From Bacillota bacterium (GTDB lineage Bacteria; Bacillota; Clostridia; TANB77; CAG-508): a stretch of DNA of 53,748 nt. The stretch is from assembly GCA_052036095.1 (NCBI GenBank), contig JBPOHA010000032.1, forward strand, positions 1-53,748. Direction: 5' to 3'. Shown piece by piece: positions 4,573-35,778 of the stretch (its first letter is position 1; every line of letters starts with the position of its first letter). A program made the position numbers and the translations under genes. The notes below the pieces were generated by a model. The model was not told the origin of the DNA, searched no databases, and saw only the letters and a program-made list of their open reading frames with translations.

Positions 4573-4608
4573 AATACAACTACATGGTCAGTTTAAGAAA
4601 AACATGAA

Positions 4609-4640
4609 AAATCTATGATATAATAACATAGATTTTATAT
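4609..4640 (+). terminator. Intrinsic terminator after mtaB
   Basis: Stem AAATCTATG (4609-4617) / CATAGATTT (4627-4635) followed by a T-rich tail. Confidence 0.5.
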
Positions 4641-4883
4641 AAATGAAATGATAATAATATTATATTATTATAAAAATATTATATATAACTAAAGCAAAAA
4701 ATACACACAAATGAATTTACTAAACTTATAAGCTTATTTTAATTTATAAGTATCACAATTTTTATTTATAAAATTTTACTAGAAACTTAAAAATAGAAAC
4801 TAGAAATAAAAAACAATTTGTTATATAAAAATAAAGGTTACAAATAAAAAAATGTCATGCTAAAATAAAAGATAGGAGATAGT

Positions 4884-5561: not shown

Positions 5562-5587
5562 AATATTTAAATATAATATATATAACA

Positions 5588-5624
5588 AATCAGCATAATT
5601 ATTAGTAATTATGCTGATTTTTTT
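5588..5624 (+). terminator. Intrinsic terminator
   Basis: Perfect stem AAATCAGCATAATTA / TAATTATGCTGATTT followed by TTTTT. Confidence 0.75.
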
Positions 5625-18778: not shown

Positions 18779-20600
18779 TGATGAAAATGAAGATTTAAAA
18801 GATACGAAGCCAGCTCCACGTCAGCATGGACCTAATCGTGTACAAGAAAAACCAAAAGATTTAAAAAAGACTTTGAAAAAGTTACGAATATATTTAAAAA
18901 GATTTATGCCTTTGATTATATCAGCACTTATATTAGCAGCTTTAGGTTCAATATTCTCAATAGTAGGACCAAACAAATTAAGCGAAATGACTGATGTTAT
19001 AACAAGTGGAATAATGACCGGAATTGATTTAGAGAAAATAACATCCATTGCAGTATTTTTACTTATACTATATTTAACAAGCGCAGCATTCAACTATTTG
19101 CAAGGTTTTATAATGGCAAAGGTTGCAAATGATTTTGCAAAAGAACTTCGTGCTAAAATATCAATAAAGATAAATAAATTACCTTTAAGATATTTTGATA
19201 CACATAGCTATGGAGATATTTTATCAAGAGTAACAAATGATGTTGATACCATTGGTACAACATTATATCAAAGTTTAGGCACATTGGTAGGAGCAATTAC
19301 ATTATTCTTAGGTTCGATTGTAATGATGTTTTATACTAATTGGATTATGGCTATAACAGGAATAGTTGCATCGATTGTAGGATTTGTTCTAATGGGAATA
19401 ATTCTTGGAAAATCACAAAAGTATTTTAATGCAAGACAGGTTGAACTTGGAAAATTAAATGGACACATTGAAGAAATATATTCGAGTCATAATATTGTTA
19501 AAGCATACAATGGAAAAAAAGAGTCAGATGAAAAATTTGATAAATTCAATGAAAGTGTATATGAATGCAATTTAAAAAGTCAATTCTTATCTGGTTTGAT
19601 GCCACCAATTATGGGATTTACAGGTAATTTTAGCTATGTTGCAGTATGCGTTGTTGGAGCAATACTTGCTATAAATGGAAGTATTTCTTTTGGAGTAATA
19701 GTTGCATTTATGGTATATGTACGTTTGTTTACAAATCCTCTTTCACAGATAGCACTAGGATTAACGAATCTTCAAACAACTGCAGCAGCATCTGAAAGAG
19801 TATTTGAATTTTTAGAAGAACCAGAGATGGATACACAAAAAGATATTACAAAGAAATTGAATTCTAAGAATGCTCAAGGAAATATTGTGTTTGATGATAT
19901 AAAATTTTCTTATGATGACAAAGAATTAGTTATAAAGGATTTTTCATGTAATGTAAAAAGAGGAGAGAAAGTTGCAATAGTAGGGCCAACAGGAGCTGGA
20001 AAAACAACAATGGTAAATCTTCTTATGAAATTTTATAATATCAAAGATGGAGATATTAAGATTGATGGAGTTTCTATAAAAGAATTATCAAGAGAAAATG
20101 TACACGATTTATTTGTAATGGTACTTCAAGATACTTGGTTATTTAATGGTACAATTAGAGATAACATTAGATACAATAAAGCTCATATTACAGATGAGCA
20201 AATTTTAGAGGCTTGTAAAACGGTTGGAATATATAAATTTGTTAAGTCACTTCCAGGAGGCTTAGATTATGAATTAACTGATAGTGATAGTATTTCAGCT
20301 GGACAAAAACAGCTAATTACAATAGCAAGAGGAATGATTGCAAATGCACCTTTCTTGATATTGGATGAAGCTACAAGCAGTGTTGATACACGTACAGAAG
20401 AACTCGTACAAAAAGCTATGGATAAATTAACAGAGGGAAGAACCTCATTTATAATCGCCCATAGATTGTCAACTATTAAAAATGCTGATATTATACTTGT
20501 TATGGATAAAGGTAATATTATTGAGCAAGGAAATCATGAAGAACTTATGGCTAAAAATGGTTTCTATGCAGATTTATATAATTCACAATTTCAAAAATAG
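18771..20600 (+). CDS. ABC exporter, fused permease/ATPase subunit 2
   Basis: 609 aa. Walker A is GPTGAGKTT, the signature is ISAGQKQLITIARG and Walker B is FLILDEATSSVD. It overlaps the upstream partner by 8 nt, which suggests translational coupling. Confidence 0.9.
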   Translation: MDNDENEDLKDTKPAPRQHGPNRVQEKPKDLKKTLKKLRIYLKRFMPLIISALILAALGSIFSIVGPNKLSEMTDVITSGIMTGIDLEKITSIAVFLLILYLTSAAFNYLQGFIMAKVANDFAKELRAKISIKINKLPLRYFDTHSYGDILSRVTNDVDTIGTTLYQSLGTLVGAITLFLGSIVMMFYTNWIMAITGIVASIVGFVLMGIILGKSQKYFNARQVELGKLNGHIEEIYSSHNIVKAYNGKKESDEKFDKFNESVYECNLKSQFLSGLMPPIMGFTGNFSYVAVCVVGAILAINGSISFGVIVAFMVYVRLFTNPLSQIALGLTNLQTTAAASERVFEFLEEPEMDTQKDITKKLNSKNAQGNIVFDDIKFSYDDKELVIKDFSCNVKRGEKVAIVGPTGAGKTTMVNLLMKFYNIKDGDIKIDGVSIKELSRENVHDLFVMVLQDTWLFNGTIRDNIRYNKAHITDEQILEACKTVGIYKFVKSLPGGLDYELTDSDSISAGQKQLITIARGMIANAPFLILDEATSSVDTRTEELVQKAMDKLTEGRTSFIIAHRLSTIKNADIILVMDKGNIIEQGNHEELMAKNGFYADLYNSQFQK

Positions 20601-20633
20601 TATAAAATTATAAGAATTAAGCTTAAAAAAAAT

Positions 20634-20805
20634 AAAACTAAAAGTAGCAGATAAATATTTTATTGTCCTTGCGTCCGACTTGCTTCCTCATGTTACAAAT
20701 CAAAGATTATGTAACTGATTCGTCGTTAGATGCAAGTCGGAAGTCGCGCTTCGCTTGTTCGCTGAGCGCGGACTACTAAAATTTTTATCTGCTATTTTTA
20801 GTTTT
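20634..20805. repeat. 29-bp imperfect inverted repeat clamping a 114-nt GC-rich, internally self-complementary core
   Basis: The arms are AAAACTAAAAGTAGCAGATAAATATTTTA (20634-20662) and TAAAATTTTTATCTGCTATTTTTAGTTTT (20777-20805): 27 Watson-Crick pairs, 1 G-T and 1 mismatch. The core 20663-20776 has 55 G/C of 114 by hand count. It has nested stems, for example TCCGACTTGC (20674-20683) / GCAAGTCGGA (20732-20741). Confidence 0.8.
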
Positions 20806-20834
20806 TGCTATATAAAAAATATATTCTTATAATT

Positions 20835-23522
20835 TTATACAAATTTATTGAGATTTCCATTAGTAAAATCTGCTCCACTAAAAGGTTCATCTAATTTAAC
20901 ATTTTTTAATATATTACATATAGAATCAATATCTTCATCTAATATACTAACTAATAAATTGCTTATAGGAATATCACTATATTTTATAGAAGTAATCTTG
21001 CTATTGTAAATTGTAGTTATTGTTTGAAGATTATCAGGTATAATTCTAAATTTGTATCCTAGTCTATCTTTTAAATAATATTTAGCACTTTCTCTACAAC
21101 CAAGACTGCAAGTTGGATAACATTTATTAGATGATCCTAATAAGCAATATCCAGTATTCATTACAGGTAGTTTTCCATATACCATAAATTCAGTAGAAAG
21201 TGATGAATTTTTTGCTAAATCTTGCAATGTTTTTTTGTCTAATTCAGGAGAAAGCATTACTCTATTAATTCCAAGAGATTTAAGTTCTTCTATTGTATGT
21301 GTATTAAATACATTTAAAGTATAATTAGATACAATATCTAATTTATTAGCATATTTAACCATAAATTCAATTCCAGAAATATTAGATATAACAATTCCTT
21401 TTACACTAAAATCTTTTATATAATCATCTATATTATTAAAGAAAATATTTCTGAAATTATCTTTTTTTATAGTTGGAAGATAGATGTATAATTTTGAATT
21501 TTGTGAAATCATTTTAATAATATCATGATATGATTTATTTAAAAAGAACTTTAATGGTATGTAGATATTATTTAATAATTTGTAATCTAATTTTGAATAA
21601 TCAAAATCTAAATTTATTTCATTTAATAACAGAGAAATTGGTCTATTATTTAGTGAGTTTTCATTTTTTAAAATAGAGCTATTATTTTCATTCAAAGTAT
21701 TGGTGCTATTCGTAATTTCATTATCTATATTAAATTTATTTTCAGATGTTGATGATTCAACATTCAATAAAATAGAATTTTTATCTAAATTTGTATTAAG
21801 TGGAATAGAGTCATTATTATTTGAATCAAAAATATCATTTCTTTCAAATCTTTTTATTGCTTGATTTTCTAAATCTTCTACAATTTCACGTCTTAGTTCA
21901 TTAATTGCAGAAATTTTAGGAATATAAGTATTATCATCTAGCACAATTTTTATATTTTTAAATTCAAAAGGAGTATCAGTTGTTTTATTTAATTGTTCAC
22001 TTATTCTTTCAGCAGTTATAGGACTACTTATGGCATCAATTGGTATAATATCAATTTGCTTATGAGATGCCATTGAGAAATAACTGCCATTTTCAGTATC
22101 CATAGAAAGTACATCAAGTGTAATTGGCAATCCTTTTTTTACAGTCATAACGCATGAAAGAGGTATTTTTTTATTTTCTTTATTTGAAAATTCAGCCACT
22201 TCTTTTGAAAGAGTATTACTGCTTAATTTATAAACTTTGTCTCCTAAATTCAAATTTCCTTTGACTCTACCAATTGTTATAATGTCACCTGGCAAAGCAT
22301 TAGGAATATTTTCATTATTTTTTAGTAATTCTGAAACGGTATATTTATGTTCTTCATGTTCTACAGAAAAATTGTCACCTATTTTTAAAGATTCAGAGGT
22401 TGTGAGTGTTATTAAACTTTTAGTATTATTTATATTAGAAATATTTCCAATATATAATCCTATATTATTAGGTTTTTCTTTATATACATACGAAGTATTA
22501 GGCTCATCTGAGAAATTTCCTTTAGAAAATCCACCACGATTAAATACTAGCATAAGACTTTTTATGTCGTTTTCGTCTACTGTATATGGTTTGTCAGATA
22601 AAGCTAAATCTATATATTTTCTATATATTTTAGTAACTACTGATACATATTCAGGGGGTTTCATTCTACCTTCAATTTTAAAACATTTGACACCTGCTTT
22701 TATTAAATCAGGTATATATTCCAATCCACATAAATCTCTTGGACTTAGCAAATATCCTTTATCTAAAACAGTATAATTATTAGATTGTTCACATATCTTT
22801 TGAGAATTTGCTAAATTATTGTTTAATAAATTAGTATCAAAATTATTTTTTATATTATTGCAAAAAATATTTTTATTACTATTGTCTAATAAATTAGAAT
22901 CTTGATTAATATTTTCTTTTAATAATTCATATGGTAATCGACAAGGCTGTGCACATCGACCACGATTACCAGAACGGCCACCTATTGTACTAGAAAATAA
23001 ACATTGACCAGAATAAGATATGCACAACGCACCATGAATAAAAGTTTCAATTTCAACATTAGAATTATGACAAATATATTCGATCTCTGATAAAGACAAT
23101 TCACGAGAAAGAACGACTCTTTTAAATCCAAGGTTTTGAAGTGCAATAACACCTTGAAGATTATGAGCAGTAATTTGTGTGCTAGCATGAATATCCATAT
23201 CAGGATATTTATTAATAAGATATTTAGCAAATCCTAAATCTTGCACAATTATAGCATCAGCTCCAAGAGTATAAACATAGTTTGCAAGTTTAGCAGCATC
23301 TTCAAATTCATCATCTTTAAGCAAAGTATTTAAAGTAAAATTAATTTTTACATTTCTAAGCTTGGCATATCTAATTGCATTTTTAAGTCCTTCTTCATCA
23401 AAGTTAGAAGCAGAAGTACGTGCATTAAAAAGTTGCCCACCAAAGTAAACGCTATCGGCACCACTTTGAACAGCAGCTTTTAAACATTCAAAATCTCCAA
23501 CAGGAGATAGTAGCTCAATCAT
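20835..23522 (-). CDS. Peptidase U32 family protein, long form with a C-terminal second U32-like half and N-rich insertions
   Basis: N-terminus MIELLSPVGDFECLKAAVQSGADSVYFGG. U32 core segments are HASTQ, VLSRELS, ETFIHGALC.SYSGQC and GRSGNRGRCAQPCR. ATG at 23522 is preceded by GGAGG. The track ORF extends to 23582 but lacks an RBS there. Confidence 0.85.
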   Translation of the reverse strand: MIELLSPVGDFECLKAAVQSGADSVYFGGQLFNARTSASNFDEEGLKNAIRYAKLRNVKINFTLNTLLKDDEFEDAAKLANYVYTLGADAIIVQDLGFAKYLINKYPDMDIHASTQITAHNLQGVIALQNLGFKRVVLSRELSLSEIEYICHNSNVEIETFIHGALCISYSGQCLFSSTIGGRSGNRGRCAQPCRLPYELLKENINQDSNLLDNSNKNIFCNNIKNNFDTNLLNNNLANSQKICEQSNNYTVLDKGYLLSPRDLCGLEYIPDLIKAGVKCFKIEGRMKPPEYVSVVTKIYRKYIDLALSDKPYTVDENDIKSLMLVFNRGGFSKGNFSDEPNTSYVYKEKPNNIGLYIGNISNINNTKSLITLTTSESLKIGDNFSVEHEEHKYTVSELLKNNENIPNALPGDIITIGRVKGNLNLGDKVYKLSSNTLSKEVAEFSNKENKKIPLSCVMTVKKGLPITLDVLSMDTENGSYFSMASHKQIDIIPIDAISSPITAERISEQLNKTTDTPFEFKNIKIVLDDNTYIPKISAINELRREIVEDLENQAIKRFERNDIFDSNNNDSIPLNTNLDKNSILLNVESSTSENKFNIDNEITNSTNTLNENNSSILKNENSLNNRPISLLLNEINLDFDYSKLDYKLLNNIYIPLKFFLNKSYHDIIKMISQNSKLYIYLPTIKKDNFRNIFFNNIDDYIKDFSVKGIVISNISGIEFMVKYANKLDIVSNYTLNVFNTHTIEELKSLGINRVMLSPELDKKTLQDLAKNSSLSTEFMVYGKLPVMNTGYCLLGSSNKCYPTCSLGCRESAKYYLKDRLGYKFRIIPDNLQTITTIYNSKITSIKYSDIPISNLLVSILDEDIDSICNILKNVKLDEPFSGADFTNGNLNKFV

Positions 23523-23669
23523 TATTTCCTCCAAATATTTAAATTTCTCTAAATATTGTAACACAAAAAATACAAATTGCATACTATGTAATATAAAATA
23601 ATTTGTGAGATAAGATATATAAACAGTTATTACATAGAAATTATAATCTCACGAGAAAAGGAGATAATT

Positions 23670-23828
23670 ATGGGTAATGATAATTCTTGCTGTTGCGGAG
23701 GACTAGGAGGAAATTCAAATAATTTTTTAGATGACATATTTAACAATCAAAATACTGAGATACTTTTATTTTTAGTAGTATTTTTACTATTATTTACGAC
23801 TTATGGAAAAAAAGGGTCAATATTATAA
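23670..23828 (+). CDS. Small (52 aa) Cys/Gly-rich hydrophobic peptide, hypothetical
   Basis: Not in the ORF track (under 60 aa). Strong RBS AAAGGAG lies 7 nt before the ATG. Translation is MGNDNSCCCGGLGGNSNNFLDDIFNNQNTEILLFLVVFLLLFTTYGKKGSIL. TATAAT is at 23642-23647. Confidence 0.35.
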   Translation: MGNDNSCCCGGLGGNSNNFLDDIFNNQNTEILLFLVVFLLLFTTYGKKGSIL

Positions 23829-24051
23829 AAGATGTATATAAGACAATTACGAGAAAAAATATTTACTAAAAGTATTACAAAAGTGAACAATATAATATAC
23901 AAAAGCAGAAGTATAACTTAAATTAAATAATAAAAAAGTAAAAATATATTAAAAAAGGTATTGATAAAATATAAAAATATTGATAAGATTAATTAAGTAA
24001 ATTTTCGTAATTAAATTCATAGTAATATAAAGTTAGATATAAGGTAAAATT

Positions 24052-25320
24052 ATGATAAAAAAACATTATTTTTTAAAATATATAATTTCAACAATAATAG
24101 CCATAGCCATAGTTATAGCTGTTATTTTTGGTATTAAAATAACAAAAAACAATTCACTAGCAGCAACCACAAAAGGCAATCAATTAGAAAATATATCAAA
24201 TTCCGTCACATTAAATAATATGACAGAAGATTCAATAATACAAATTGAGGCACAGAAAAATAACAAAGATATAGACTTAGAAAATATAGTATTAAAAAAT
24301 CAAGAATATATTATTACTGAAAAGATAGAAAGACAAGAAGTAGATTTAGAATATACAACTCAATATAGGGAAAATAATTCATTAGCTAAAGGAAAAATTC
24401 AAACTTTACAAGAAGGAAATGATGGAAAACAAGATGCAATTGTAAAGAAAATTTATAGAAATGGGGAACTTGTTTCATTAGAACAAATATCTTCAGAAGT
24501 AAAAAAAGTAGCAGTAGACAAGATAGTAGAGATAGGGACAGCTTCTTTTTCTAGCAATTATGTACCAATTATGGGGGACAAGCTTAAGGTAACGTCAAGT
24601 AGCTTAGCTATTAGAGTTACACCAGATAGCAATTCTGAAAAAATAATTACAATAGATAAAAATTCAGAAGTAACTTTAAAAGATAAGCAAGATGGGTGGT
24701 ATTATATATCATATGAAAGCTATATTGGATGGATTCCAACTGATTGTGTAACATATGTTGATCCAAATTCAGGCAGTGATGGCGATGGAAATAATATTCA
24801 ATATTCAAAAGAACAACTTTCACAAGACCTTGGAATAAGTATGTTATTAAATAAAAAAAGTGGACTAACATTAGAGCAATTTAGAAAGATTTTATCAAAT
24901 GATACTAATGATAAAGAAGGAGTATTTACAAGCATAGCAGACTACTTTTATTATGTAGAGCAACAATATAACATTAATGGAATATTTGTTGCAGCAGTTG
25001 GAATACATGAAAGCGGATGGGGAACATCATCTATATCAAAAAATAAGAAAAATCTATTTGGATATGGAGCATATGATAGAGATCCATCAGGAAGTGCAGC
25101 TACTTTTGAAACGTACCAAGAGGGAGTAGATTTGGTATCAAGAGTACTTGTTAAGTATTACATAAATCCAATAGGAACGTCAATATACAGTGGAGAAACA
25201 GCGACTGGAACTTATTATAAAGGCTCAACATTAACTGCTGTAAATAAAACTTATGCAAGTGATACTAATTGGGCAAATGCTGTATACAAATGGATGATGT
25301 ATTTATATAATAAATTATAA
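24052..25320 (+). CDS. Cell-wall hydrolase: TM anchor + G5 domain + SH3b domain + glucosaminidase (GH73-like) domain
   Basis: G5-like segment: TTQYRENNSLAKGKIQTLQEGNDGKQDAIVKKIYRNGELV. SH3b-like segment: LAIRVTPDSNSEKIITIDKNSEVTLKDKQDGWYYISYESYIGWIP. Glucosaminidase segment: FVAAVGIHESGWGTS...NLFGYGAYD. Confidence 0.8.
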   Translation: MIKKHYFLKYIISTIIAIAIVIAVIFGIKITKNNSLAATTKGNQLENISNSVTLNNMTEDSIIQIEAQKNNKDIDLENIVLKNQEYIITEKIERQEVDLEYTTQYRENNSLAKGKIQTLQEGNDGKQDAIVKKIYRNGELVSLEQISSEVKKVAVDKIVEIGTASFSSNYVPIMGDKLKVTSSSLAIRVTPDSNSEKIITIDKNSEVTLKDKQDGWYYISYESYIGWIPTDCVTYVDPNSGSDGDGNNIQYSKEQLSQDLGISMLLNKKSGLTLEQFRKILSNDTNDKEGVFTSIADYFYYVEQQYNINGIFVAAVGIHESGWGTSSISKNKKNLFGYGAYDRDPSGSAATFETYQEGVDLVSRVLVKYYINPIGTSIYSGETATGTYYKGSTLTAVNKTYASDTNWANAVYKWMMYLYNKL

Positions 25321-25328
25321 AATTTTAC

Positions 25329-25357
25329 TTGATATTTTATAAAACTTAGTGTATGAT
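25329..25357 (+). promoter_or_regulatory. Putative promoter of the 25399-30323 gene set (TTGATA-N17-TATGAT)
   Basis: TTGATA at 25329-25334 and TATGAT at 25352-25357 with a 17-nt spacer. GGAGG RBS precedes the 25399 start. Confidence 0.35.
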
Positions 25358-25398
25358 AATATAGAAAGAAAAAATGGACATAATAATAGGAGGAGAAA

Positions 25399-25791
25399 AT
25401 GATGAAAAGGACAATCATTGTTATTACTATTTTCTTAAGTATTCTAAGTGTTGGTTCAGTATATGCAGAAACAATTTCAAATCAGACTAAGAGCCAGTTA
25501 ATAGAAATTAAAGATAATGAATTAAAGTCAATGGAAGATTATCAACAAGCCTACGGAAATACTACATACGGAACAGTAGCTTATGTACTTAATAAAGTTA
25601 GAATATATAGTATTCCTTTTGCAATATTAGGAATAGCAATAAGTGCTATTTATGAATATGTAATAGGATTAAGGCATGCAGAATCAAGAGATAAAGGATT
25701 CAATTCAATGATAGCAATAGTAACTTTGCTAGTAATATGCCAAGTATTGCCATTAATATTTGCTATCATAGTAAAAGGTTGGAGGGGTTAA
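25399..25791 (+). CDS. Small membrane protein: signal peptide plus two TM helices, hypothetical
   Basis: 130 aa. Signal-like N-terminus is IIVITIFLSILSVGSVYA. Two hydrophobic helices follow (IPFAILGIAISAIYEYVIGL and MIAIVTLLVICQVLPLIFAIIV). The stop is 4 nt before the next start. Confidence 0.6.
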   Translation: MMKRTIIVITIFLSILSVGSVYAETISNQTKSQLIEIKDNELKSMEDYQQAYGNTTYGTVAYVLNKVRIYSIPFAILGIAISAIYEYVIGLRHAESRDKGFNSMIAIVTLLVICQVLPLIFAIIVKGWRG

Positions 25792-25795
25792 ACAA

Positions 25796-27784
25796 ATGAA
25801 GGTTTTATTTGCAGTAAGTAATGATAATATAACAACATCAGTTGTTAATAGATATCAACAAAAATTTAAGGAAATAATAACTAGTAAAAATGTATATTAT
25901 TTTAATGCAATAATAAAAGAATTACAAAAAGACAAAACATACGACATAGTTGTAATTGGAGAGGATTTAGAACCAATTTCCAATAATAATTATGATGCAG
26001 TTGATAAATTTATATTTGAAAAGCTTGATAGTATAAGCGATGAGGCATCAAAACCAACAGGTGAGGATATCCCAATTATACTAATTTGCTCTGATAGAAG
26101 GACAAAGTCAGACCAATTATTAATAAAATTATTTGGAATAGGCGTTTATAATGCCTTATTAGGTAATGACAGAAGCATAGATATGGTATGCAATTTAATT
26201 GCAAAGCCACGTAATAAAAAAGAAGCTAAGAATTACTACAAAATAGAGTCAAATGATGTAGAATATAAGCCGGAAACCGATAGCGATGTGAGCGAATCAG
26301 AAATACAAAGTATATTAGCACATTATAAGAAAGTAGGAAATAATGAAAAAAAATGTGTTGAAAGTTTTGATAGCATTGCTGAACAATATACGGATTCACA
26401 ATTAAGAATAATAGTTACATTCTTACCAATTAGTGTAAAAGCTATTTTGGAAGCTAATTCACCAAGATATCAACAATTAATGACAAGTGGAACAGTATTA
26501 ACAAATGGAAAATATATGCAATACAATAAACAACCAGTTACGAAACCAGGAAATATTGACGTGTTAACTAAAGACTTGGAAAAGCCAAAACTAAATGAAC
26601 CAGTAATAATACCAGCTACGATGAATATTCAAGAAAAATTGGAAAATGAATTAAAAAAAGGAATATCACAACAAAGCTATAACCAGTCAACTAATGTTAT
26701 AAATCAATATGGACAACCAAATTACAATAAGAATTTTCAGCAGTCAAATTATAATCAATCAAGCAATGTTGCAAATCAATATATGCAACCAAATTACAAT
26801 AAAAATACCCAGCAGTCAAATTATAATCAATCAAGCAATGTTGCAAATCAATATATGCAACCAAATTACAATAAAAATACCCAACAGGCAAATTATAATC
26901 AATCAAGCAATGTTGCAAATCAATATATGCAGCCAAATTATAATGCAAATACCCAACAGGCAAATTATAATCAATCAAGCAATGCTGCAAATCAATATAC
27001 ACAGCCAAATTATAATACAAATACTCAACAAGCAAATTATAATATAAATAATGAAAATCAATTTCAAAATGATAATCTTAATGCACAATACAACGATAAA
27101 AAAAATGCAAATATGACATTTAATATAGAAGAATTAGCTACTCCAGTAAAAAATAATAATAATGAAGTTAATGTTGAATCTAATAAAGATTTAAACAAAT
27201 TGTTAAATCAAACCCCTTCTTTAAATAATTTTAATGATGCTAAAAATACAACTATGCCAGTACAAGAAGAAAAAAGTAGTATATTGCCAGGACTAGAAGA
27301 AACAAGTAGTGTATTGCCAGGAATGGATGAAACAAGTAGTGTATTGCCAGGACTAGAAGAAACAAGCAGTGTATTGCCAGGAATAGATGAAACAAGCAGT
27401 GTATTGCCAGGACTAGAAGAAACAAGTAGTGTATTGCCAGGAATAGATGGAACAAGTAATGTATTGCCAGGAACAGATGAAACAAGTAATGTATTGCCAA
27501 AAGCAGAAAATGAAAATATATCTGCAAATCAGTTAGTAGTGCAACCAGAAAATTTATTAACTACAATGCAAACAAATACTTCTTTGCAAAATTTTCCAAC
27601 AGAAGGGGAAACTATTAGAAGAAGAGGTAGACCAAGAAAAGTTTATACTGGTGATATAATTGAAAATCAAGTAGATTCTACACCAAAAAGAAGAGGCAGA
27701 CCAAGAAAAGTTGTTGATGAGCCAAATAATCAACAATTATTTCAAAATGAATTTAATAATATGCAAGTAGATAATACGAATTAA
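25796..27784 (+). CDS. Repeat-rich protein: receiver-like N-terminal domain, Q/N/Y-rich 24-aa repeats, (ETSSVLPG[LI][ED]) repeats, two AT-hooks. Ends at an in-repeat TAA
   Basis: The N-terminus has alternating beta/alpha character (KVLFAVSND...YDIVVIGEDLEP...IPIILICSD), which looks like a CheY-like fold. RRRGRPRK is at 27617-27640 and KRRGRPRK at 27686-27709. It is in the same frame as the next ORF. Confidence 0.7.
   Translation: MKVLFAVSNDNITTSVVNRYQQKFKEIITSKNVYYFNAIIKELQKDKTYDIVVIGEDLEPISNNNYDAVDKFIFEKLDSISDEASKPTGEDIPIILICSDRRTKSDQLLIKLFGIGVYNALLGNDRSIDMVCNLIAKPRNKKEAKNYYKIESNDVEYKPETDSDVSESEIQSILAHYKKVGNNEKKCVESFDSIAEQYTDSQLRIIVTFLPISVKAILEANSPRYQQLMTSGTVLTNGKYMQYNKQPVTKPGNIDVLTKDLEKPKLNEPVIIPATMNIQEKLENELKKGISQQSYNQSTNVINQYGQPNYNKNFQQSNYNQSSNVANQYMQPNYNKNTQQSNYNQSSNVANQYMQPNYNKNTQQANYNQSSNVANQYMQPNYNANTQQANYNQSSNAANQYTQPNYNTNTQQANYNINNENQFQNDNLNAQYNDKKNANMTFNIEELATPVKNNNNEVNVESNKDLNKLLNQTPSLNNFNDAKNTTMPVQEEKSSILPGLEETSSVLPGMDETSSVLPGLEETSSVLPGIDETSSVLPGLEETSSVLPGIDGTSNVLPGTDETSNVLPKAENENISANQLVVQPENLLTTMQTNTSLQNFPTEGETIRRRGRPRKVYTGDIIENQVDSTPKRRGRPRKVVDEPNNQQLFQNEFNNMQVDNTN
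26669..27043 (+). repeat. 72-bp coding tandem repeat (about 5 copies) encoding QQ(S/A)NYNQSSNVANQYMQPNYN(K/A/T)NT
   Basis: Direct reading of the DNA and the translation. It also creates spurious long ORFs on other frames and strands (26697-27035 -, 26709-27047 +). Confidence 0.9.
27266..27500 (+). repeat. 30-bp coding tandem repeat (about 8 copies) encoding ETSSVLPG(L/I/M)(E/D)
   Basis: Direct reading: gaagaaacaagtagtgtattgccaggacta-type units repeated back to back. Confidence 0.9.
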
Positions 27785-28135
27785 TATTCAAATAGAAATC
27801 AAGTAGACAATACGAATTCATATTCAAATAGCAATCAAGTAGACAATACGAATTCATATCAAAATAGCAATTCAGTAGACAATACGAATTCATATTCAAA
27901 TAGCAATCCAGTAGACAATACGAATTCATATCAAAATAGCAATCCAGTAGATAATACGAATTCATATTTAAATAGCAATCCAGTAGACAATATGAATTCA
28001 TATTCAAATAGCAATCCAGTGGATAATACGAATCCATATTTAAATAGCAATCCAGTAGATAATATGAATTCATATTCAAATAGCAATCCAGTAGAAAATA
28101 TGAACCCATATTCAAACAGCACTCCAGTAGAAAAT
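27755..28135 (+). repeat. 36-bp coding tandem repeat (about 10 copies) encoding NSNPVDNTNSYS. It spans the stop of ORF 25796-27784 and the start of ORF 27992-29161
   Basis: Units of the type aat agc aat cca gta gac aat acg aat tca tat tca read continuously in one frame from before 27782 to about 28135. Confidence 0.9.
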
Positions 28136-29161
28136 ATAGATAATTTTAGTGCACAACAAGAGACTAATAAATCAAATGATGATTTAATTGCTATTCAAAA
28201 TAATCAGCAATATAAGAACAACCTCTCATTTACAGGAATTGGAAAATTGGTAGCATTTATAGGGACGAGTAAAAATGGAACATCATTTATTGTAAATAAT
28301 TTGGCACAATTACTTTCACAAAGTGGAATAAATGTAGCGATATTAGATGTTACTAAAAATAAAAATTCATATTATATGTTTACAGATAATAATCCAGAAT
28401 TAGTGAAGGTAGCAACAGACAGTATAAAGAATTTGTCAGAAGGAAGAACACAAGGATTAAAAGTAAATGCAAAGTTGACTGTTTATACATCATTACCAGG
28501 AGAAATTGAAGAAAATGATAATCCTAAGATAATGTTACAAACACTATCAAGTAATTATGATGTTACACTTATAGACTGTGATTTTAAATCAGATATTTCA
28601 TATTTTACTGATGTAAATGAAATATATTTAGTTCAATCAATGGATGCATTAACAATTCAGCCATTAACACAATTTTTAAATGACTTAAAAAATAGAAATT
28701 TGTTAGTAGAAAGTAAACTTAGAGTTATTATAAATAAATATGTTAGATTAAAAATGTTAAATGATAAAATGATAATAGCAGGTATGTCAAGATATAATGA
28801 ACCTTCAATGACACTACAAAAAGATTTATTTAATAGAGATACAATTAAATATATTGATATTCCATTTGAAATGCAAACATACGAAAGATATCTTGAAGAA
28901 ATAGCTTTATGTCAAATTTCGATAAATGGATATTCTCAACAATTTATTGAAAGCTTAAATGAACTAAAAAATATGGTATATCCTCTTATATCTGGAAGAA
29001 ACAGTGGAAATTATGAAAAAAAAGTAAATAGTGTGTATAATAATTACGAAAAGACAAAAAAACATGGCTTTTTCGGATTAAGAAAACCAAAGCAACAACA
29101 AGCAACACAATTCTCTGGTGATGTAAATGATACATTAAACAAAATGAGATCAAATTTTTAG
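27992..29161 (+). CDS. ParA/MinD-fold protein with degenerate Walker A. The reading frame is open upstream to 27785
   Basis: By eye it aligns with MinD/ParA: VAFIGTSKNGTSFIVNNLAQLLSQSGINVAILDV corresponds to the xxSGKGGVGKTT...VxxxDxD region, VTLIDCDF to the Walker B region, and RVIINKY to the later conserved strand. There is no RBS before the ATG at 27992, which sits inside the repeat array. Confidence 0.65.
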   Translation: MNSYSNSNPVDNTNPYLNSNPVDNMNSYSNSNPVENMNPYSNSTPVENIDNFSAQQETNKSNDDLIAIQNNQQYKNNLSFTGIGKLVAFIGTSKNGTSFIVNNLAQLLSQSGINVAILDVTKNKNSYYMFTDNNPELVKVATDSIKNLSEGRTQGLKVNAKLTVYTSLPGEIEENDNPKIMLQTLSSNYDVTLIDCDFKSDISYFTDVNEIYLVQSMDALTIQPLTQFLNDLKNRNLLVESKLRVIINKYVRLKMLNDKMIIAGMSRYNEPSMTLQKDLFNRDTIKYIDIPFEMQTYERYLEEIALCQISINGYSQQFIESLNELKNMVYPLISGRNSGNYEKKVNSVYNNYEKTKKHGFFGLRKPKQQQATQFSGDVNDTLNKMRSNF

Positions 29162-29183
29162 CATTATATAAATTAGAAATGAG

Positions 29184-30323
29184 GTGAATTTTTTGATATT
29201 AGGCATAATAATATTATTAGTTACAATTGTTATAATTTTAATGATATATAACTATTCTGTCCATAAAAAAATAGATACTTTTACAAATTTAAATCAAAGA
29301 GTTACTAGCCTTAATATTTTACAAGAATTTATGAATACTCTAGGTGAGAGCACGTCTATAAACGAAAAGTTAGAAAATATTAATGACATATTAATTAATA
29401 AGTATTCTATAAAATATTCTACGATAGTCGTATTTGATGGTTCTGAGTATGTAGTAAAGGCCTCAAATGTTGATAAAAAGCATTGGGAAACTTTAAAAAA
29501 CTTACAAAGTGATCCAGTTTTTGGAGATAGTATAAAAACAGCTACTCCTAAATACGTTACAGTCGATAATGAAAGTGAAAAATTGCCTTATCAAAAAATG
29601 GAATTTGGAAGAGCAAAATGTGCAATGTTCTTTCCACTATATGTAGAAAATGTATATATTGGATATTGGATTATAGAAGGTAGTGTTCCACACGAATTTG
29701 ACAAAATGGACACGACAATTTTGGAAGTCGTACGAGATAACATTGTAACAATATTAAAGACTGTAGAAAATCAGGCAACAATCGAAAATATAGTAAGAGA
29801 TGACTTATATTCAGGCTTAAAGTCAGCAGAATATTTGTATGGAGAAGGAAAGAAAAAGATTGATCAGTATACTACATCTGCAATATGTTTATTTAAAATT
29901 AGTAATTTGTTAGAGATAGACAATAATGTAAGTAGAAAAACTGGAGATAATGTAATTACAATTATATCAAAGACAGTTAAAGAAAATTTGGCTGATAATT
30001 ATGTTTTTGTACGTTATATGGGTCCAAAATTTGCTATAGTATTTTCAGGGGCAGATGTTAATGGAGTTATGAATTTTATGACATCTATTAAAGAAAGATT
30101 AGAACAATTGAAAATACAAGCTGCAGACGATTATTTTAAAGATATCTCTAATCAAAGGGAAAGTGAAAATCAAAAAATAGTTAGCAGACCTACTATTGCT
30201 GTAAGCCCTAAGATAAGAGCTGTAATCTCTACATATTATAAAGGAACATCATTAGATGGTGCTTTAAAAAAGCTAGAAGAGTATATAGATTCTTCAAATG
30301 AAAATAATATAATATCAATGTAA
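29184..30323 (+). CDS. Membrane-anchored GAF-like + degenerate GGDEF-domain protein
   Basis: N-terminal TM. The central region is GAF-like ([18 protein letters not shown]...[19 protein letters not shown]). The C-terminal region has GGDEF-fold landmarks: [10 protein letters not shown] (for DxLTGLxNR), TGDNVI (for GHxxGDxVL) and RYMGPKF in place of RxGGDEF. The start is uncertain (GTG 29184 or TTG 29193 after GAGGTG). Confidence 0.7.
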
Positions 30324-30349
30324 AATTTTATAAAAAAGGAGAGAAAATT

Positions 30350-30604
30350 ATGGCTACAGATGAAACAGTAAGTTTTAATGTTGAAAGAGAAGAAAATGCT
30401 AAAACGAAAGAAATATTAAAAGATGTGTATGATGCTTTACAAGAGAAAGGCTATAATCCAATTAATCAAATAGTAGGTTATATATTATCTGGTGATCCAA
30501 CATATATTACTAGCCATAAAGGTGCACGTAATTTAATAAGACAAGTTGAAAGAGACGAACTTCTTGAAAAGATGGTAAAAGAATACATTAATGTTAATAA
30601 ATAA
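30350..30604 (+). CDS. ireB: IreB-family regulatory phosphoprotein (UPF0297 / YrzL)
   Basis: 84 aa. The conserved core is [40 protein letters not shown]. It lies immediately upstream of ruvX, as in Bacillus (yrzL-yrrK). Confidence 0.85.
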
Positions 30605-30610
30605 AAAAAT

Positions 30611-30666
30611 CGGAACGCTAATAAACTAATAATTTTTATTGTTTTAAGCGTTCCGTAAGTTTTTTC
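30611..30666 (+). terminator. Possible intrinsic terminator (large loop)
   Basis: Stem CGGAACGCT (30611-30619) / AGCGTTCCG (30647-30655), followed by TAAGTTTTTTC. The 27-nt loop lowers confidence. Confidence 0.45.
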
Positions 30667-30783
30667 TTATTAAAAGCTATTTTTTATAATATTATTAATA
30701 GAATAACAAAAAAATGCAAGAATAGTATATAGAAATATGGAAGATAAGTATAAAATAAAAAAATTACTAGAATAGGATAAGAT

Positions 30784-31203
30784 ATGAGTAGAAAATTAGG
30801 AATTGATTACGGTATTTCAAGAACAGGAATAGCAATAACAGACGAATTAGGAATAACTGCACAAGGATTAGAAACTATAACTTCAAATGGAAATGACAAA
30901 GCGATATTAAGGAGAATAGCAGCACTACTTGAACAATATGATATTGATACTTTTGCAATTGGAAATCCTTTAAATATGGATGGAACAGAAAGCAAGAGGT
31001 CAATAGAAACTGACGAGTTCATTCATAAATTGAAGTCAAGGTTTAACAATATTGAAATAGTAAAAGTAGACGAAAGACTAACAACGGTTGAAGCACATAA
31101 AACTATGAATTTATTAAATATAAATAATAGGAAAAAGAAAGAAGTAGTAGACACTATTGCAGCAGTATATATATTAGAGGGTTATATTAATAAAAAAAAG
31201 TAA
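30784..31203 (+). CDS. ruvX: Holliday-junction resolvase-like / pre-16S rRNA nuclease RuvX (YqgF)
   Basis: 139 aa. N-terminus is LGIDYGISRTGIAITDELGITAQGLETI. DERLTTVEA is also present. This is the typical YqgF family. Confidence 0.9.
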   Translation: MSRKLGIDYGISRTGIAITDELGITAQGLETITSNGNDKAILRRIAALLEQYDIDTFAIGNPLNMDGTESKRSIETDEFIHKLKSRFNNIEIVKVDERLTTVEAHKTMNLLNINNRKKKEVVDTIAAVYILEGYINKKK

Positions 31204-31545
31204 AAGTTTTGAAATATTAAATTAAAAAAAGATAATATAGAATAAATCATCTAGATTTTATGACATAACATAATAAATAAATATTTTTATCTATTGTGCG
31301 ATTAAATAGTTAAGTAAAAGATATTACTATTGTCATATAATTTATGAGAAAATACTTGATTTTTGAGCCAAATTGGTGTAAAATAAATGATGTCGCATAC
31401 AAAGTATGCAAAGAGAACGCTTAAAATTTATTATTAAGCAATTTATTAATTAAAATTTTGATAAATTTAGAATATTCCAATTAATTAATGTCAAATATTA
31501 GTTTTGATAAAATTAGAATATTAATTGTAGAAAGGGGTAATAATA

Positions 31546-32112
31546 ATGGCAACAGTATATTCAGCAGGAGATTTTAGAAATGGAACAACATTTGAAATGG
31601 ATGGTAATGTATATAGGATAGTAGAATTCCAACACGTAAAACCAGGAAAGGGATCAGCATTCGTTAGAACAAAGATTAAGAATGTTGTAAATGGAAGTGT
31701 AATTGAAAGAACTTTCAATCCATCAGAAAAATTTCCAGCAGCAGAAATAGAAAAGAAAGAAATGCAATATCTATATGAAGATAGTGGATTATATTATTTC
31801 ATGGATAATGAAACTTATGAACAAATTCCATTAAATAAAGAACAATTAGGAGATAGTTTAAAATTCTTAAAGGAAAATATGAATGTTAAACTATTATCAA
31901 TAAAAGGCAATGTATTTTCTATTGAACTTCCAATATCAATAGAATTAAAAGTTACTTATACAGAGCCAGGATTTGCAGGAAATACTTCAACAACATCAGG
32001 AAAACCTGCCACACTAGAAAATGGTTATGAATTAACTGTACCTATGTTTATAAACATAGGTGATGTAGTTAGAGTAGACACAAGAAATGGTGAATACATG
32101 GAGAGAGTCTAA
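31546..32112 (+). CDS. efp: Elongation factor P
   Basis: 188 aa. It contains [38 protein letters not shown] and a C-terminal [17 protein letters not shown]. Confidence 0.95.
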
Positions 32113-32141
32113 TTATAATAAATAGTTTCATAGGAGGGTAA

Positions 32142-32855
32142 ATGTCTGACTTAAGTAAAAAGTACGATAAAATTCTATTAGAATTAAAAGATAAGATTAA
32201 GAATCCAGAAGAATATCAATTTGTAAAGGATAAAGTAAGTGAACTTACAATAATGTTCATGGATTCAATTGATAAGTTTATAGAACTTCAAAATAATCAA
32301 GAAAAAATAGAAAATAAAATAAAAAAGATTCAAAAAGATATAAAACACATTCAAAGCGATTTTTACGTAGAAGAAGATGATGAGTGCAACAATTGTAATT
32401 CTGAATGTGATGATGATGAATGCAATAATTGTAATTGTGGATGTGATGATGATGAATGCGACCACAACAATTGTGAATATGACAATGATAAAGAATGCGA
32501 ATTTGAAATTATTTGCCCATATTGCGATTATGAATTTATTGCTGGTAATACATCAAAAAATACAGACGTAATTGAATGTCCAAAATGTCATAAAATGATT
32601 GAACTTGATTGGAATGACGAAGAATGCGATTGCGAGTCTTGTTCATCATGTTGCTCAGACGAAAAAAATGAAAGTCAAGTATGCAAAAAAACAAATAATA
32701 TTGAAAAAGTTGCTGAAGATTCTACCAATTATGATATTGATTCAAAAAATGAATCAAGTAAAGATTTAGAAAGTTCTAAAAGCAAAGATAATATATTAAA
32801 TTCTAAAAAGAAAAATAAGAATATTTCAAATAATAAAAATGAAGATGATATGTAA
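32142..32855 (+). CDS. Cys/Asp-rich protein with zinc-ribbon motif, conserved position downstream of efp (hypothetical)
   Basis: 237 aa with a coiled-coil-like N-terminus. The (DDDECNNCNC)-type Cys/Asp repeats are followed by CPYC...CPKC (zinc ribbon) and a C.C.SC.SCC cluster. The tail is K/N/S-rich. Confidence 0.6.
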   Translation: MSDLSKKYDKILLELKDKIKNPEEYQFVKDKVSELTIMFMDSIDKFIELQNNQEKIENKIKKIQKDIKHIQSDFYVEEDDECNNCNSECDDDECNNCNCGCDDDECDHNNCEYDNDKECEFEIICPYCDYEFIAGNTSKNTDVIECPKCHKMIELDWNDEECDCESCSSCCSDEKNESQVCKKTNNIEKVAEDSTNYDIDSKNESSKDLESSKSKDNILNSKKKNKNISNNKNEDDM

Positions 32856-32887
32856 TAAAGTAAAAAAATATTAGATGTCAATAAAGA

Positions 32888-32926
32888 AAAAATGGATAAG
32901 CAGTAAAATGAATATCCATTTTTTTG
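32888..32926 (+). terminator. Intrinsic terminator
   Basis: Stem ATGGATA (32892-32898) / TATCCAT (32913-32919), followed by TTTTTT. Confidence 0.5.
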
Positions 32927-32986
32927 AAATATTTGGATTATCATTTTTTTGAAACATTTTAATTATCTATTTTTTAAATACTATAA

Positions 32987-33637
32987 TTAGTTATTTATCG
33001 AAAAAAATTTTAAAGGATTAACAGGAGTGTTCTTTTCTTTTATTGATAAATGAAGATGACATCCAGTAGTGGCTCCATTTGTGGGTTTACCAGTTGAGTC
33101 TTTATAAGGATTATTAGAGATATTATATACATTTTTAGGACCTACATATCCAATTAATTGTTTAGAATAAACTTGATCACCTTTGGAAACAATAAGATTA
33201 GGAGAAACGTGACAATAAGATATAAAAATGTCAGGGTGCGCAGTAGACTGTAAAGTAATTGTGTATCCACCACTAGATCCCCAACCTGAAAAGACTATTT
33301 GCCCATTGACTGAAGCATATAAATTAGTTCCTTCCAACGCAGGAATATCAATCCCTGAATGATAACTTGAAGCACCAGTAGTTGGGACATTACGCTTCCC
33401 AAAGTATGATGAAATTCTTGTATATCCAGGAATTGGCCATGCAAAGTCAAAAATAGAAGAAACTTTAATTGAATCTTCATAATTATCTTGACTTGTATTA
33501 TTTGATAAGATTGAAAAATTGGAAAGAAATGATATAGGGGTGAAAAAGGCAGAGAATATTAAAAGTGTTATTAAAAAAAGTATAGAATATTTAAAAATAG
33601 AATTTGAAAATGGAAAATAAAAAAAAGTACCAAACAT
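32987..33637 (-). CDS. M23 family metallopeptidase (LytM-type)
   Basis: 216 aa with an N-terminal hydrophobic anchor. M23 motifs are YHSGIDIPA (HxxxD) and GCHLHLSI (HxH). Confidence 0.85.
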   Translation of the reverse strand: MFGTFFYFPFSNSIFKYSILFLITLLIFSAFFTPISFLSNFSILSNNTSQDNYEDSIKVSSIFDFAWPIPGYTRISSYFGKRNVPTTGASSYHSGIDIPALEGTNLYASVNGQIVFSGWGSSGGYTITLQSTAHPDIFISYCHVSPNLIVSKGDQVYSKQLIGYVGPKNVYNISNNPYKDSTGKPTNGATTGCHLHLSIKEKNTPVNPLKFFSINN

Positions 33638-33683
33638 GAATTAACCTCCATATCTAGTACCCCTACTAAAATATTAATTTTAT

Positions 33684-33758
33684 TGGCAGGAGTAGTAGGA
33701 TTTGAACCCACACGCACGGTTTTGGAGACCGGAATGCTACCATTAACATCATACTCCT
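33684..33758 (-). tRNA. tRNA-Trp (anticodon CCA)
   Basis: The reverse complement is AGGAGTATGATGTTAATGGTAGCATTCCGGTCTCCAAAACCGTGCGTGTGGGTTCAAATCCTACTACTCCTGCCA. Acceptor stem is AGGAGTA/TACTCCT. Anticodon loop is CTCCAAA. T-arm is GTGGG-TTCAAAT-CCTAC. CCA is encoded. Confidence 0.92.
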
Positions 33759-33989
33759 ATAAAAAATACATAAAATTATATATGTTAAGTAAGTATAATA
33801 AAATATAATTATCAACTTAACAAAAATAATGATAACACAAAAAAGCCAATTCTGCAAGTAAATTTAAAAAATATTATAAAAATATTATAAAAAAAGTATA
33901 AAAATATTATATAAATAAGTATATTACTAATTTACAACTTTATAGGTATCTTAGATTTGAAACCTAAATAAATTGAAAAGGAAAGAGAT

Positions 33990-34760
33990 ATGATAGCATT
34001 AGTTACAGGGGCTTCTTCAGGAATTGGAAGAGATATGGCGAGAGAACTTGCAAAGAAAAAATATGATTTAATTTTAGTTGCAAGAAATGAAAAAGAATTA
34101 AATAGATTGAAATGTGAATTTGAAAAAGATTATAAAATTAAGGTTGATGTTATGCCAACTGACTTAAGTAATAGTTCAACTTGCAAAGATTTGCACGATA
34201 ATGTAAAAAAAAAATATGGAACGATAGATGTTCTTATAAATGATGCAGGATTTGGAACTTGTGGAGAGTTCATTAATACTGATTTAGACAAAGAAATAAA
34301 AATGATTGATACAAATGTTATTGCTCTTCACATACTTACAAAGCTATTTATGCAAGATATGGTTAAAGTTAATAAAGGACATATTTTAAATGTCGCTTCA
34401 ATTGCAGGATTTATGCCTGGTCCATTAATGGCAACATATTATTCTACAAAAGCTTATGTAGTAAGACTTACACAAGCTTTAAGGGAAGAACTATTTATGA
34501 TGCATTCTAAAGTGAAAATAATGGCACTTTGCCCAGGACCTGTAAAAACGAACTTTAATAAAGTTGCAGATGTAAAGTTTAATTGGCTTGAAGCTGATAG
34601 CAAATGGGTTGCAAAATATGGAATTACTATGATGTTTTGTAATAGAATTATTGCTTATCCAAGTATTATAATGTTATTTTTTAGAATTTTTGCAAAAATA
34701 TTACCAGATCAATTAATGGCATTTTTCTGCTACTTTGCACAAAAACGTAAAATACAATAG
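33990..34760 (+). CDS. SDR-family (short-chain dehydrogenase/reductase) oxidoreductase
   Basis: 256 aa. The cofactor motif is VTGASSGIG. The catalytic motif YSTKAY (YxxxK) follows a SIAG serine. The C-terminal tail is hydrophobic. Confidence 0.9.
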   Translation: MIALVTGASSGIGRDMARELAKKKYDLILVARNEKELNRLKCEFEKDYKIKVDVMPTDLSNSSTCKDLHDNVKKKYGTIDVLINDAGFGTCGEFINTDLDKEIKMIDTNVIALHILTKLFMQDMVKVNKGHILNVASIAGFMPGPLMATYYSTKAYVVRLTQALREELFMMHSKVKIMALCPGPVKTNFNKVADVKFNWLEADSKWVAKYGITMMFCNRIIAYPSIIMLFFRIFAKILPDQLMAFFCYFAQKRKIQ

Positions 34761-34788
34761 AAAAATTGAAAACTAATATATAAGATAT

Positions 34789-34872
34789 AAAAATAAAAGA
34801 AAAAATAAAAGAAAAAATAAAAGAAAAAATAAAAGAAAAAATAAAAGAAAAAATAAAAGAAAAAATAATAGA
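34789..34872. repeat. 12-bp tandem repeat (ATAAAAGAAAAA)x6-7
   Basis: Direct reading. Unit starts are at 34793, 34805, 34817, 34829, 34841 and 34853. Confidence 0.9.
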
Positions 34873-34938
34873 AGAAATAGCAGAGAAAACAAAATAAAAA
34901 AAAAAATAATAATAAATATATAAATTAATAATTTATTA

Positions 34939-35778
34939 TTATTTTAAATTTAGCATTTGATAAGCATTACATAATTCACAACCAGTGCACATTAAGATTC
35001 TATCAGAGAAAATCATTTTTATGGTTTTTATGAAAGAGTCTTCTTTTGTTGTTAGATGAAGACATATTTTTGCAGGTAATAAACTAACTAGAGTATTCAA
35101 AACATAGTCATTATTTGAAAAACTAATATCTGATAAGTAAATAGAATTAAATTTATCAAGTTTAATAGTATTTCCAGTTTCGTCAAGTAAGAATGCTTTA
35201 GAATTTACATATACAAGGTTAATAATAATGTTATTTGGAATTTTTGAATCAACATAGTTTTTCAATAAATCAACAAATTCGAAAAATTCTTTATCAACAA
35301 CAAATTGATTTACAGAATCTTCAAGTAGTTTTGTGATATACGAAATATAGCGAGATAATCTAAAATATACAAATCCACTTAGAACTAATGATTTATTATT
35401 TTTTATATAATTAATTAACTCTTTTTTTATTAATCGTTGTTTTAAATTAAAATTATTTTTACGATTTCTTTTAGTTATCAATTTATATTCATCCATAATT
35501 ATTTTTTCATCTGGAATATCAAAGTAGAAATAGTTATAATCAAATAATCTTTTTAAAATTTGTGGTTCATAAAATTTTATTATTGCTTTTGAAATGATAA
35601 AAGCAATGAAATCATAAAATGAGGATAAATTTTTACCTTTATAATGGATAATTAAATTATCATATATCTTAAATTTCTTTATAGAAAAATATATTTCAGA
35701 AATGCTACTTTTTTTGATTTCACTTAATAAAAAATTTTGAATTTTTTTGTTGTTTTCTTTTATGCTTAAAGAAATCAT
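34939..35778 (-). CDS. Hypothetical protein, possibly YtxC-like sporulation protein
   Basis: 279 aa. The segment LSGFVYFRLSRYISYITKLLEDSVNQFVVDKEFFEFVDLLKNYV resembles what I remember of the YtxC family. This is not verified. Confidence 0.4.
   Translation of the reverse strand: MISLSIKENNKKIQNFLLSEIKKSSISEIYFSIKKFKIYDNLIIHYKGKNLSSFYDFIAFIISKAIIKFYEPQILKRLFDYNYFYFDIPDEKIIMDEYKLITKRNRKNNFNLKQRLIKKELINYIKNNKSLVLSGFVYFRLSRYISYITKLLEDSVNQFVVDKEFFEFVDLLKNYVDSKIPNNIIINLVYVNSKAFLLDETGNTIKLDKFNSIYLSDISFSNNDYVLNTLVSLLPAKICLHLTTKEDSFIKTIKMIFSDRILMCTGCELCNAYQMLNLK

Follow-up and report, generated by a model that had tools for sequence, protein, structure and literature searches.

Does the forward strand at positions 25796–29161 hold two neighbouring genes or a single broken one? 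The locus lies in a 53,748-nucleotide stretch of DNA from a Bacillota bacterium (GenBank assembly GCA_052036095.1, contig JBPOHA010000032.1); this whole stretch is called the window below. Gene callers give two proteins at the locus, P0242 (662 amino acids, aa) and P0001 (389 aa). A sequence-only reading had instead proposed one receiver-like/AT-hook/ParA-like gene of ~1,120 codons, split by a single C-to-A change at position 27783. Orthologues and a second contig from the same species agree with that proposal. We lean towards one gene carrying a very recent strain-level nonsense allele, that is, a truncation or loss of function and in effect a nascent pseudogene.

A single reading frame interrupted by one stop codon

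Retranslation confirmed that open reading frame (ORF) 1 (25796–27784, 662 aa) and ORF2 (27992–29161, 389 aa) share a common reading frame, and that the TAA at 27782–27784 is the only interruption, as the sequence-only reading had stated. This TAA is the sole internal stop across 1,122 codons, and after it the frame remains open for 459 codons. The open frame exceeds chance by far: the regional composition (A 45%, T 27%) predicts about 103 stops in 1,122 codons, and the remaining two forward frames contain 111 and 156. The gene, its stop and the repeat that surrounds the stop are as follows.

25796–29161, + strand: whole interrupted gene, with 1,121 sense codons and one internal TAA; the conspecific orthologue is a single 1,061-aa ORF
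27782–27784, + strand: in-frame TAA, followed by T (TAA-T); its middle base, 27783, is A, whereas the conspecific contig has C and so reads TCA (Ser)
27764–28136, + strand: 36-bp coding tandem array of about 10 NSNPVDNTNSYS-like units, with the stop in the first unit and one unit more than in the conspecific contig (L138)

Tandem arrays were called with Tandem Repeats Finder, which reported 10.3 copies of the 36-bp unit with 90% matches at 27766–28136. The array runs in frame across the TAA, so that the repeat continues on both sides of the stop and crosses the apparent intergenic stretch, as had been noticed. On the plus strand of the consensus unit, read by eye, the real frame alone is open. 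When the units are set in register, codon 7 is TAA in unit 1, TCA in seven of the next nine units and CCA in the other two; the earlier statement that all following copies have TCA therefore holds for most of them and fails for two. At 27992, where the 389-aa ORF is called to start, the 36-bp unit has ATG in place of ACG; ATG recurs in two later units. The 36-bp repeat is species-specific.

Orthologous loci encode one fused protein

We took a census of orthologous loci collected by the N-terminal domain only, i.e. blind to split status. Among GTDB species representatives, relatives were confirmed at 582 genome stretches and 80 loci were kept, all from metagenome-assembled genomes (MAGs) of uncultured gut Clostridia (e.g. 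Clostridium sp. CAG:508). Every GTDB locus with both domains (77/77) has them in one frame with no stop between, in ORFs of 725–1,208 aa. Metagenome contigs carrying both halves gave a similar picture, with 30 of 33 intact and ORFs of up to 1,244 aa. Overall, 107 of 110 loci are single-ORF orthologues (695–1,244 codons), and the linkers of these 107 contain no stop anywhere. Regular two-gene orthologues, which the sequence-only reading had named as evidence that would speak against one split gene, were thus not what the loci showed.

The three exceptions among the metagenome contigs are frame breaks. L125 has 1.5x coverage. L085 has 3.6x coverage and a collapsed region between two AT-hooks (at ~1200–1240), and in L089 the junction holds an unusual GC-rich insert (~7300–7350) that may mark a chimeric join.

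Protein searches with each half returned hundreds of homologues, and the best 120 per half were all shorter than 600 aa. Taken with the output of the gene callers, this result suggested that the locus holds two truly separate genes, one for a receiver/AT-hook protein and one for a stand-alone ParA-like protein. The loci behind the matches tell otherwise. The short homologues are fragments produced by contig ends, internal Met codons, 100-N gaps and frameshifts, and it is these fragments that give the false impression of a two-gene family. In L001 and L003, which were picked via short proteins, the halves lie in different frames through frameshifts; L001 also has a split ruvX, indicating a low-quality MAG. 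Short proteins of the P0106 type come from scaffolds (L134–L137) with 100-N gaps in the linker repeats. Linker repeats regularly break or distort short-read assemblies, which is why many of the family's database entries are partial proteins. A two-gene norm was dropped after the locus census, and two separate genes at the window locus are refuted by the census together with the conspecific allele, which is a single ORF; we give that reading next to no credence. Judged from the compared sequences, a single fused gene is the norm.

These results have direct consequences for annotation. The 662-aa and 389-aa proteins belong in a single entry marked as one disrupted gene, and the 389-aa ParA-like protein, with its repeat-derived Met start, is probably not a genuine product. 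The case also illustrates a wider problem: repeat linkers of low complexity fill databases with fragments, and the resulting illusion of two genes persists until whole loci are compared.

A second assembly of the species carries the intact gene

The 90%-identity cluster of the 389-aa protein has one other member, P0241, which is 1,061 aa long. It is encoded on contig L138 (ena:ERZ22666005 k127_6822953, 21,345 nt), from another assembly. Compared with window positions 19796–35196, L138 has 30 mismatches in 15.2 kb (99.8% identical) and so represents the same species in a different assembly. Its gene is intact, a single ORF, with C at the site of 27783, which gives TCA (Ser).

Within the gene, 11 substitutions and two in-frame indels of whole units separate the window from L138: the window has one extra 36-bp unit and two extra units of a second array.

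26678–27043, + strand: 72-bp coding tandem array, 5.1 copies, N/Q/Y-rich; two units more than in L138
27772–27796, + strand: three clustered window/L138 differences in unit 1 of the 36-bp array, namely 27772 T/C (synonymous), 27783 A/C (stop/Ser) and 27796 A/C (Arg/Ser)

All five non-synonymous differences lie within the linker, and the receiver-like and ParA-like domains differ synonymously only, as would be expected of a recent change. With 5 mismatches, the best alignment of the repeat units locates the unit indel downstream of the stop, at a distance of two units. The units can also be aligned so that the stop-bearing one is the unit that L138 lacks, at the cost of one further mismatch (6 vs 5).

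Copy number differs between the two assemblies at 26745–26888 (the two 72-bp units) and 27838–27873 (the one 36-bp unit). Outside the gene, the intergenic stretch 34789–34824 differs by three 12-bp AATAAAAGAAAA units, and an A8/A9 run at 31191 differs in a way that alters the last residues of RuvX (139 aa vs 145 aa).

An exact-pattern scan of metagenome contigs, with position 27783 set to N, found no other copy of the site. Look-ups via the neighbouring 130-aa protein and IreB led to conspecific contigs too short to cover it.

The downstream half lacks translation signals of its own

We compared the starts of the two called ORFs by the predicted strength of their pairing with the anti-Shine-Dalgarno (anti-SD) sequence.

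25781–25787, + strand: Shine-Dalgarno sequence GGAGGGG of the true start, ATG 25796; anti-SD duplex −9.8 kcal/mol
27992–27994, + strand: called start codon (ATG) of the 389-aa ORF; it arises from the repeat unit as a Met variant and lacks a Shine-Dalgarno sequence

The duplex at 25796 is stronger than the median over 30 gene starts in the window (−5.9 kcal/mol). The in-frame ATGs at 27992, 28064 and 28100 all score −0.5 kcal/mol, which is the regional background, and the earlier description of ATG 27992 as a repeat variant without a ribosome-binding site is thereby upheld. A TTG at 28247 scores −4.8 kcal/mol, a value near the 5th percentile for random positions of the region. A consensus scan of the stretch between the stop and the ParA-like domain found neither a terminator-like site nor a promoter that stood out.

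TAA is the usual stop codon in this genome. It ends 34 of 38 ORFs in the window, 13 of them as TAAT, and the other four end in TAG. Reassignment of TAA is ruled out by its use as the main terminator. No suppressor is present among the four tRNAs of the window (Gln, His, Gln, Trp), and an Rfam scan over the window found these four tRNAs only, none of them in the gene region, and no recoding signal.

None of the window ORFs ends in TGA. Relatives do end genes with TGA, in 38 of 445 long ORFs overall and in 10 of the 121 from the 22 closest loci, and the absence in the window is probably a matter of sampling in a genome of 26.7% GC.

Taken together, these signals suggest how the allele would act. 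The C-to-A change at 27783 would convert the Ser codon TCA of the first repeat unit to TAA. Ribosomes that initiate at the strong ATG 25796 would stop at the TAA-T and release a 662-aa product comprising the receiver-like domain, the linker and the AT-hooks. The ParA-like part, having no ribosome-binding site of its own, would not be made, or would be made in traces only; from the TAA allele it would in effect go untranslated.

A real nonsense allele or a consensus error

The locus has the marks of a gene disrupted by a nonsense mutation: uninterrupted orthologues, one identifiable lesion and a downstream part without start signals. It resembles other strain-specific nonsense pseudogenes and split-gene annotations, in that a single premature stop is set against intact orthologues and an intact conspecific copy, and the remainder is called from an internal Met. 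It is unlike them in that the lesion lies within a polymorphic coding tandem repeat and may yet prove to be a consensus error. The sequence-only reading had offered four explanations, and two of them, a nonsense allele and an assembly or consensus error, are retained; an on/off switch and readthrough or reinitiation found no positive support.

We infer that the change at 27783 is real in the DNA. C-to-A is a substitution in the AT-biased direction, in keeping with the low GC content of the genome. The rest of the 53.7-kb contig has no broken-looking ORF, and the Pfam-scanned window proteins gave full-length domain matches. Where the two assemblies differ by A8/A9 close to the ruvX terminus, the protein end typical of the family is found in the window and not in L138. 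In addition, the same gene is disrupted in another species, by a +1 frameshift at residue 44. Graded apart from the artefact and the functional readings, a real allele is somewhat probable.

Several observations weigh against a real allele. The A at 27783 is that of an assembled consensus, and the two assemblies of the species that cover the site supply one allele each. Of the 30 differences in 15.2 kb, three, the stop among them, crowd into 25 bp of one repeat unit, and 27783 and 27796 are the sole positions in 15 kb at which the window has A and L138 has C. The linker is hard to assemble, as seen from the 100-N scaffold gaps of the P0106-type loci, the AT-hook collapse in L085 and the GC-rich insert in L089. 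Finally, both conserved domains are untouched by any decay, which fits an artefact as well as a very recent mutation. It is accordingly possible, and we hold this tentatively, that the organism has TCA and an intact gene, and that error-bearing or mixed-strain reads through the 36-bp repeat gave the A in the consensus; the changes at 27772 and 27796 would then perhaps have the same origin. Against such an error, the assembly faults seen elsewhere in the family are indels, gaps and collapses rather than substitutions, and a de Bruijn assembler requires TAA-containing k-mers in the reads. The sound state of the other genes on the contig and the better assembly of the window at the ruvX homopolymer also argue against it. 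With either origin, the locus is an ordinary strain-specific knockout or a sequencing error, and no new mechanism is involved. If the allele is real, it adds to the evidence that a widespread, uncharacterised protein is dispensable in some strains.

The +1 frameshift of that other species (cgggag vs caaaga) is shared by no fewer than 22 contigs, which come from several samples and have coverage of up to 67x. In L130 the two parts lie at 3388–3528 and 3509–5608, the same arrangement is found in L131–L133, and the remaining 700 codons are open. This has the look of a genuine, widespread allele that is disrupted or truncated at the N-terminus.

Switching, readthrough and reinitiation

The remaining explanations give the stop a function. 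Taken together, the regulated or functional readings (switch, readthrough or reinitiation) are unlikely. One of them holds that loss of a unit or gene conversion erases the stop, so that the ParA-like fusion is switched ON and OFF between strains or cells. The two conspecific assemblies do differ in the stop, in exactly one 36-bp unit and in two 72-bp units, and treating the stop-bearing unit as the extra one costs only a single additional mismatch. Nevertheless, there is a single known allele of each kind, the most parsimonious alignment sets the unit indel two units away from the stop, and 107 intact orthologues have no linker stop. Simple-sequence contingency loci are similar in that a repeat gene occurs in ON and OFF forms among close genomes with varying copy number. 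They differ in that classical loci switch by frame-changing repeats, whereas the OFF form here is a base substitution and the units (72, 30 and 36 bp) are all multiples of three. The unit indels between the window and L138 are in frame, and no evidence of switching was found in these two assemblies. We regard an ON/OFF switch in the population as quite improbable. Its stronger version, a heritable OFF state undone by 36-bp unit loss or gene conversion, with strains toggling between tethered and ParA-less forms, seems more improbable still; if true, it would be a switch based on substitution plus repeat contraction instead of slippage.

Even less probable, in our view, is that one mRNA yields two isoforms because ribosomes either read through the TAA at a low level or reinitiate at ATG 27992 or TTG 28247. 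The long open frame past the stop is compatible with it, as is the TTG at 28247, which lies at the first strand of the ParA fold and has a weak Shine-Dalgarno-like match. However, few bacterial stop signals are as efficient as TAA with a following U, natural genes of the window often end in TAAT, and the tRNA and Rfam results offer no suppressor. The closest ATG is 208 nt downstream and has no Shine-Dalgarno sequence, and about one random position in twenty scores as well as the TTG. Programmed readthrough and other recoding events likewise show an in-frame stop followed by a long open frame and a conserved domain. Unlike them, the stop here is conserved in no orthologue and is missing from the conspecific allele, its context is an ordinary TAA-T, and there is no recoding signal. 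We read the locus neither as a recoding site nor as a conserved pair of genes, and not as a demonstrated switch either.

A large family of receiver-like, AT-hook and ParA-like proteins

The family to which the gene belongs is large and uncharacterised, and is a more worthwhile target than the stop codon. A literature search found no paper on a receiver-like/AT-hook/ParA-like family. From structural models and sequence motifs, the predicted layout, which is fixed in the family, is a receiver-like domain, a helical subdomain, a disordered N/Q-rich linker with AT-hooks and LPGxE motifs, and a ParA/MinD fold.

25796–26203, + strand: receiver-like (beta-alpha)5 domain, aa 1–136; AlphaFold predicted local distance difference test (pLDDT) 66.7; Foldseek matches to receiver domains, E ~1e-3
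26216–26482, + strand: conserved all-helical subdomain, aa 141–229, after the receiver-like fold
27265–27499, + strand: 30-bp coding tandem array, 7.8 copies, with seven [ST]S[SN][IV]LPGx[DE] motifs in its translation
27617–27640, + strand: AT-hook 1 (RRRGRPRK), RGRP core
27686–27709, + strand: AT-hook 2 (KRRGRPRK), RGRP core
28244–28984, + strand: ParA/MinD-fold domain; Pfam CbiA 27.1 bits (cut-off 25.4); pLDDT >85 over most of the core
28262–28285, + strand: Walker-A position, GTSKNGTS, with Thr for both the signature and the catalytic MinD lysines

The domain labels given by the sequence-only reading stood up, with Foldseek matches for both domains and two RGRP cores. The best Foldseek matches of the N-terminal domain are receiver domains, including the N-terminal domains of CpaE/TadZ, at E ~1e-3 for a model of pLDDT 66.7. 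A Glu-Asp pair, E56-D57, follows strand 3 (GEDLEP, 25958–25975); E56 is invariant and D57 at least 90% conserved in alignment A1, and ED is found at strand 3 in every orthologue variant listed. Inspection of the model by eye places SNDN after strand 1 and Ser/Asp after strand 4 in the receiver pocket, with no Lys after strand 5. The N-terminal 285 aa had no Pfam, NCBIfam or PDB sequence match, and neither domain profile drew a useful match from the PDB sequences.

The linker is disordered and N/Q-rich across orthologues, with a length of about 140–614 aa (~500 aa in the window gene). Of 76 full-length orthologues, 75 carry two RGRP AT-hook cores, neither more nor fewer, and LPGxE-type motifs are found again in orthologues.

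The C-terminal domain matches ParA best (3ea0, E = 1.4e-9) in Foldseek, followed by MinD (4v02), BcsQ (6yay), FlhG (4rz3) and FleN. It has the fold of these SIMIBI proteins (E 1e-9 to 1e-6, target-normalised TM-score 0.6–0.73) and keeps a conserved hhhhDCD Walker-B-like strand. In contrast to MinD and ParA, both lysines of KGGxGK[ST] are Thr family-wide: among 76 full-length orthologues, G[TS][TS]KNGTS is found in 69 and GxxxxGK[ST] in none. In an hhalign alignment to E. coli MinD, itself weak (E = 0.095), both lysines align to Thr. Because Thr replaces both Walker A lysines, ATP hydrolysis by the usual mechanism appears doubtful in this domain, and contact with DNA may be made through the AT-hooks instead of an ATPase surface.

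TadZ/CpaE proteins (PDB 4n0p, 4lda, 4dn6, 4myr) combine an atypical receiver, described as the N-terminal 'ARD' (bioRxiv 10.64898/2026.07.08.737194), with a ParA/MinD ATPase and belong to Tad pilus loci. They share with our gene an N-terminal receiver-like fold and a C-terminal ParA/MinD fold in the same order. They differ in that the two domains of our gene are parted by a long disordered linker with two AT-hooks, and in that it has an extra helical subdomain and the GTSKNGTS Walker A. The PDB searches gave no match at the sequence level, and there are no tad/cpa genes near the gene; the window ORFs scanned with Pfam, up to ~36 kb, include no Tad components. The genomic context, the AT-hook linker and the lysine-less P-loop argue against membership of TadZ/CpaE. 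A role as a DNA-tethered positioning or scaffold protein would be plausible.

Neighbouring genes

In the window, the gene is flanked by genes for a peptidoglycan hydrolase, a small membrane protein, a GGDEF-like protein, IreB and RuvX. The small membrane protein upstream and the GGDEF-like membrane protein, IreB and RuvX downstream are conserved neighbours across species, and in orthologue loci the latter three are always next downstream. The ORF finder starts the downstream GGDEF-like gene (29184–30323) at a GTG within a Shine-Dalgarno-like motif, GAGGTGA; its real start is probably a TTG a few bases downstream, at ~29193. Elsewhere in the window, the alanyl-tRNA synthetase ORF (9080–10831) encodes 583 aa, comprising the catalytic core and the tRNA_SAD domain; the typical bacterial enzyme has ~870 aa.

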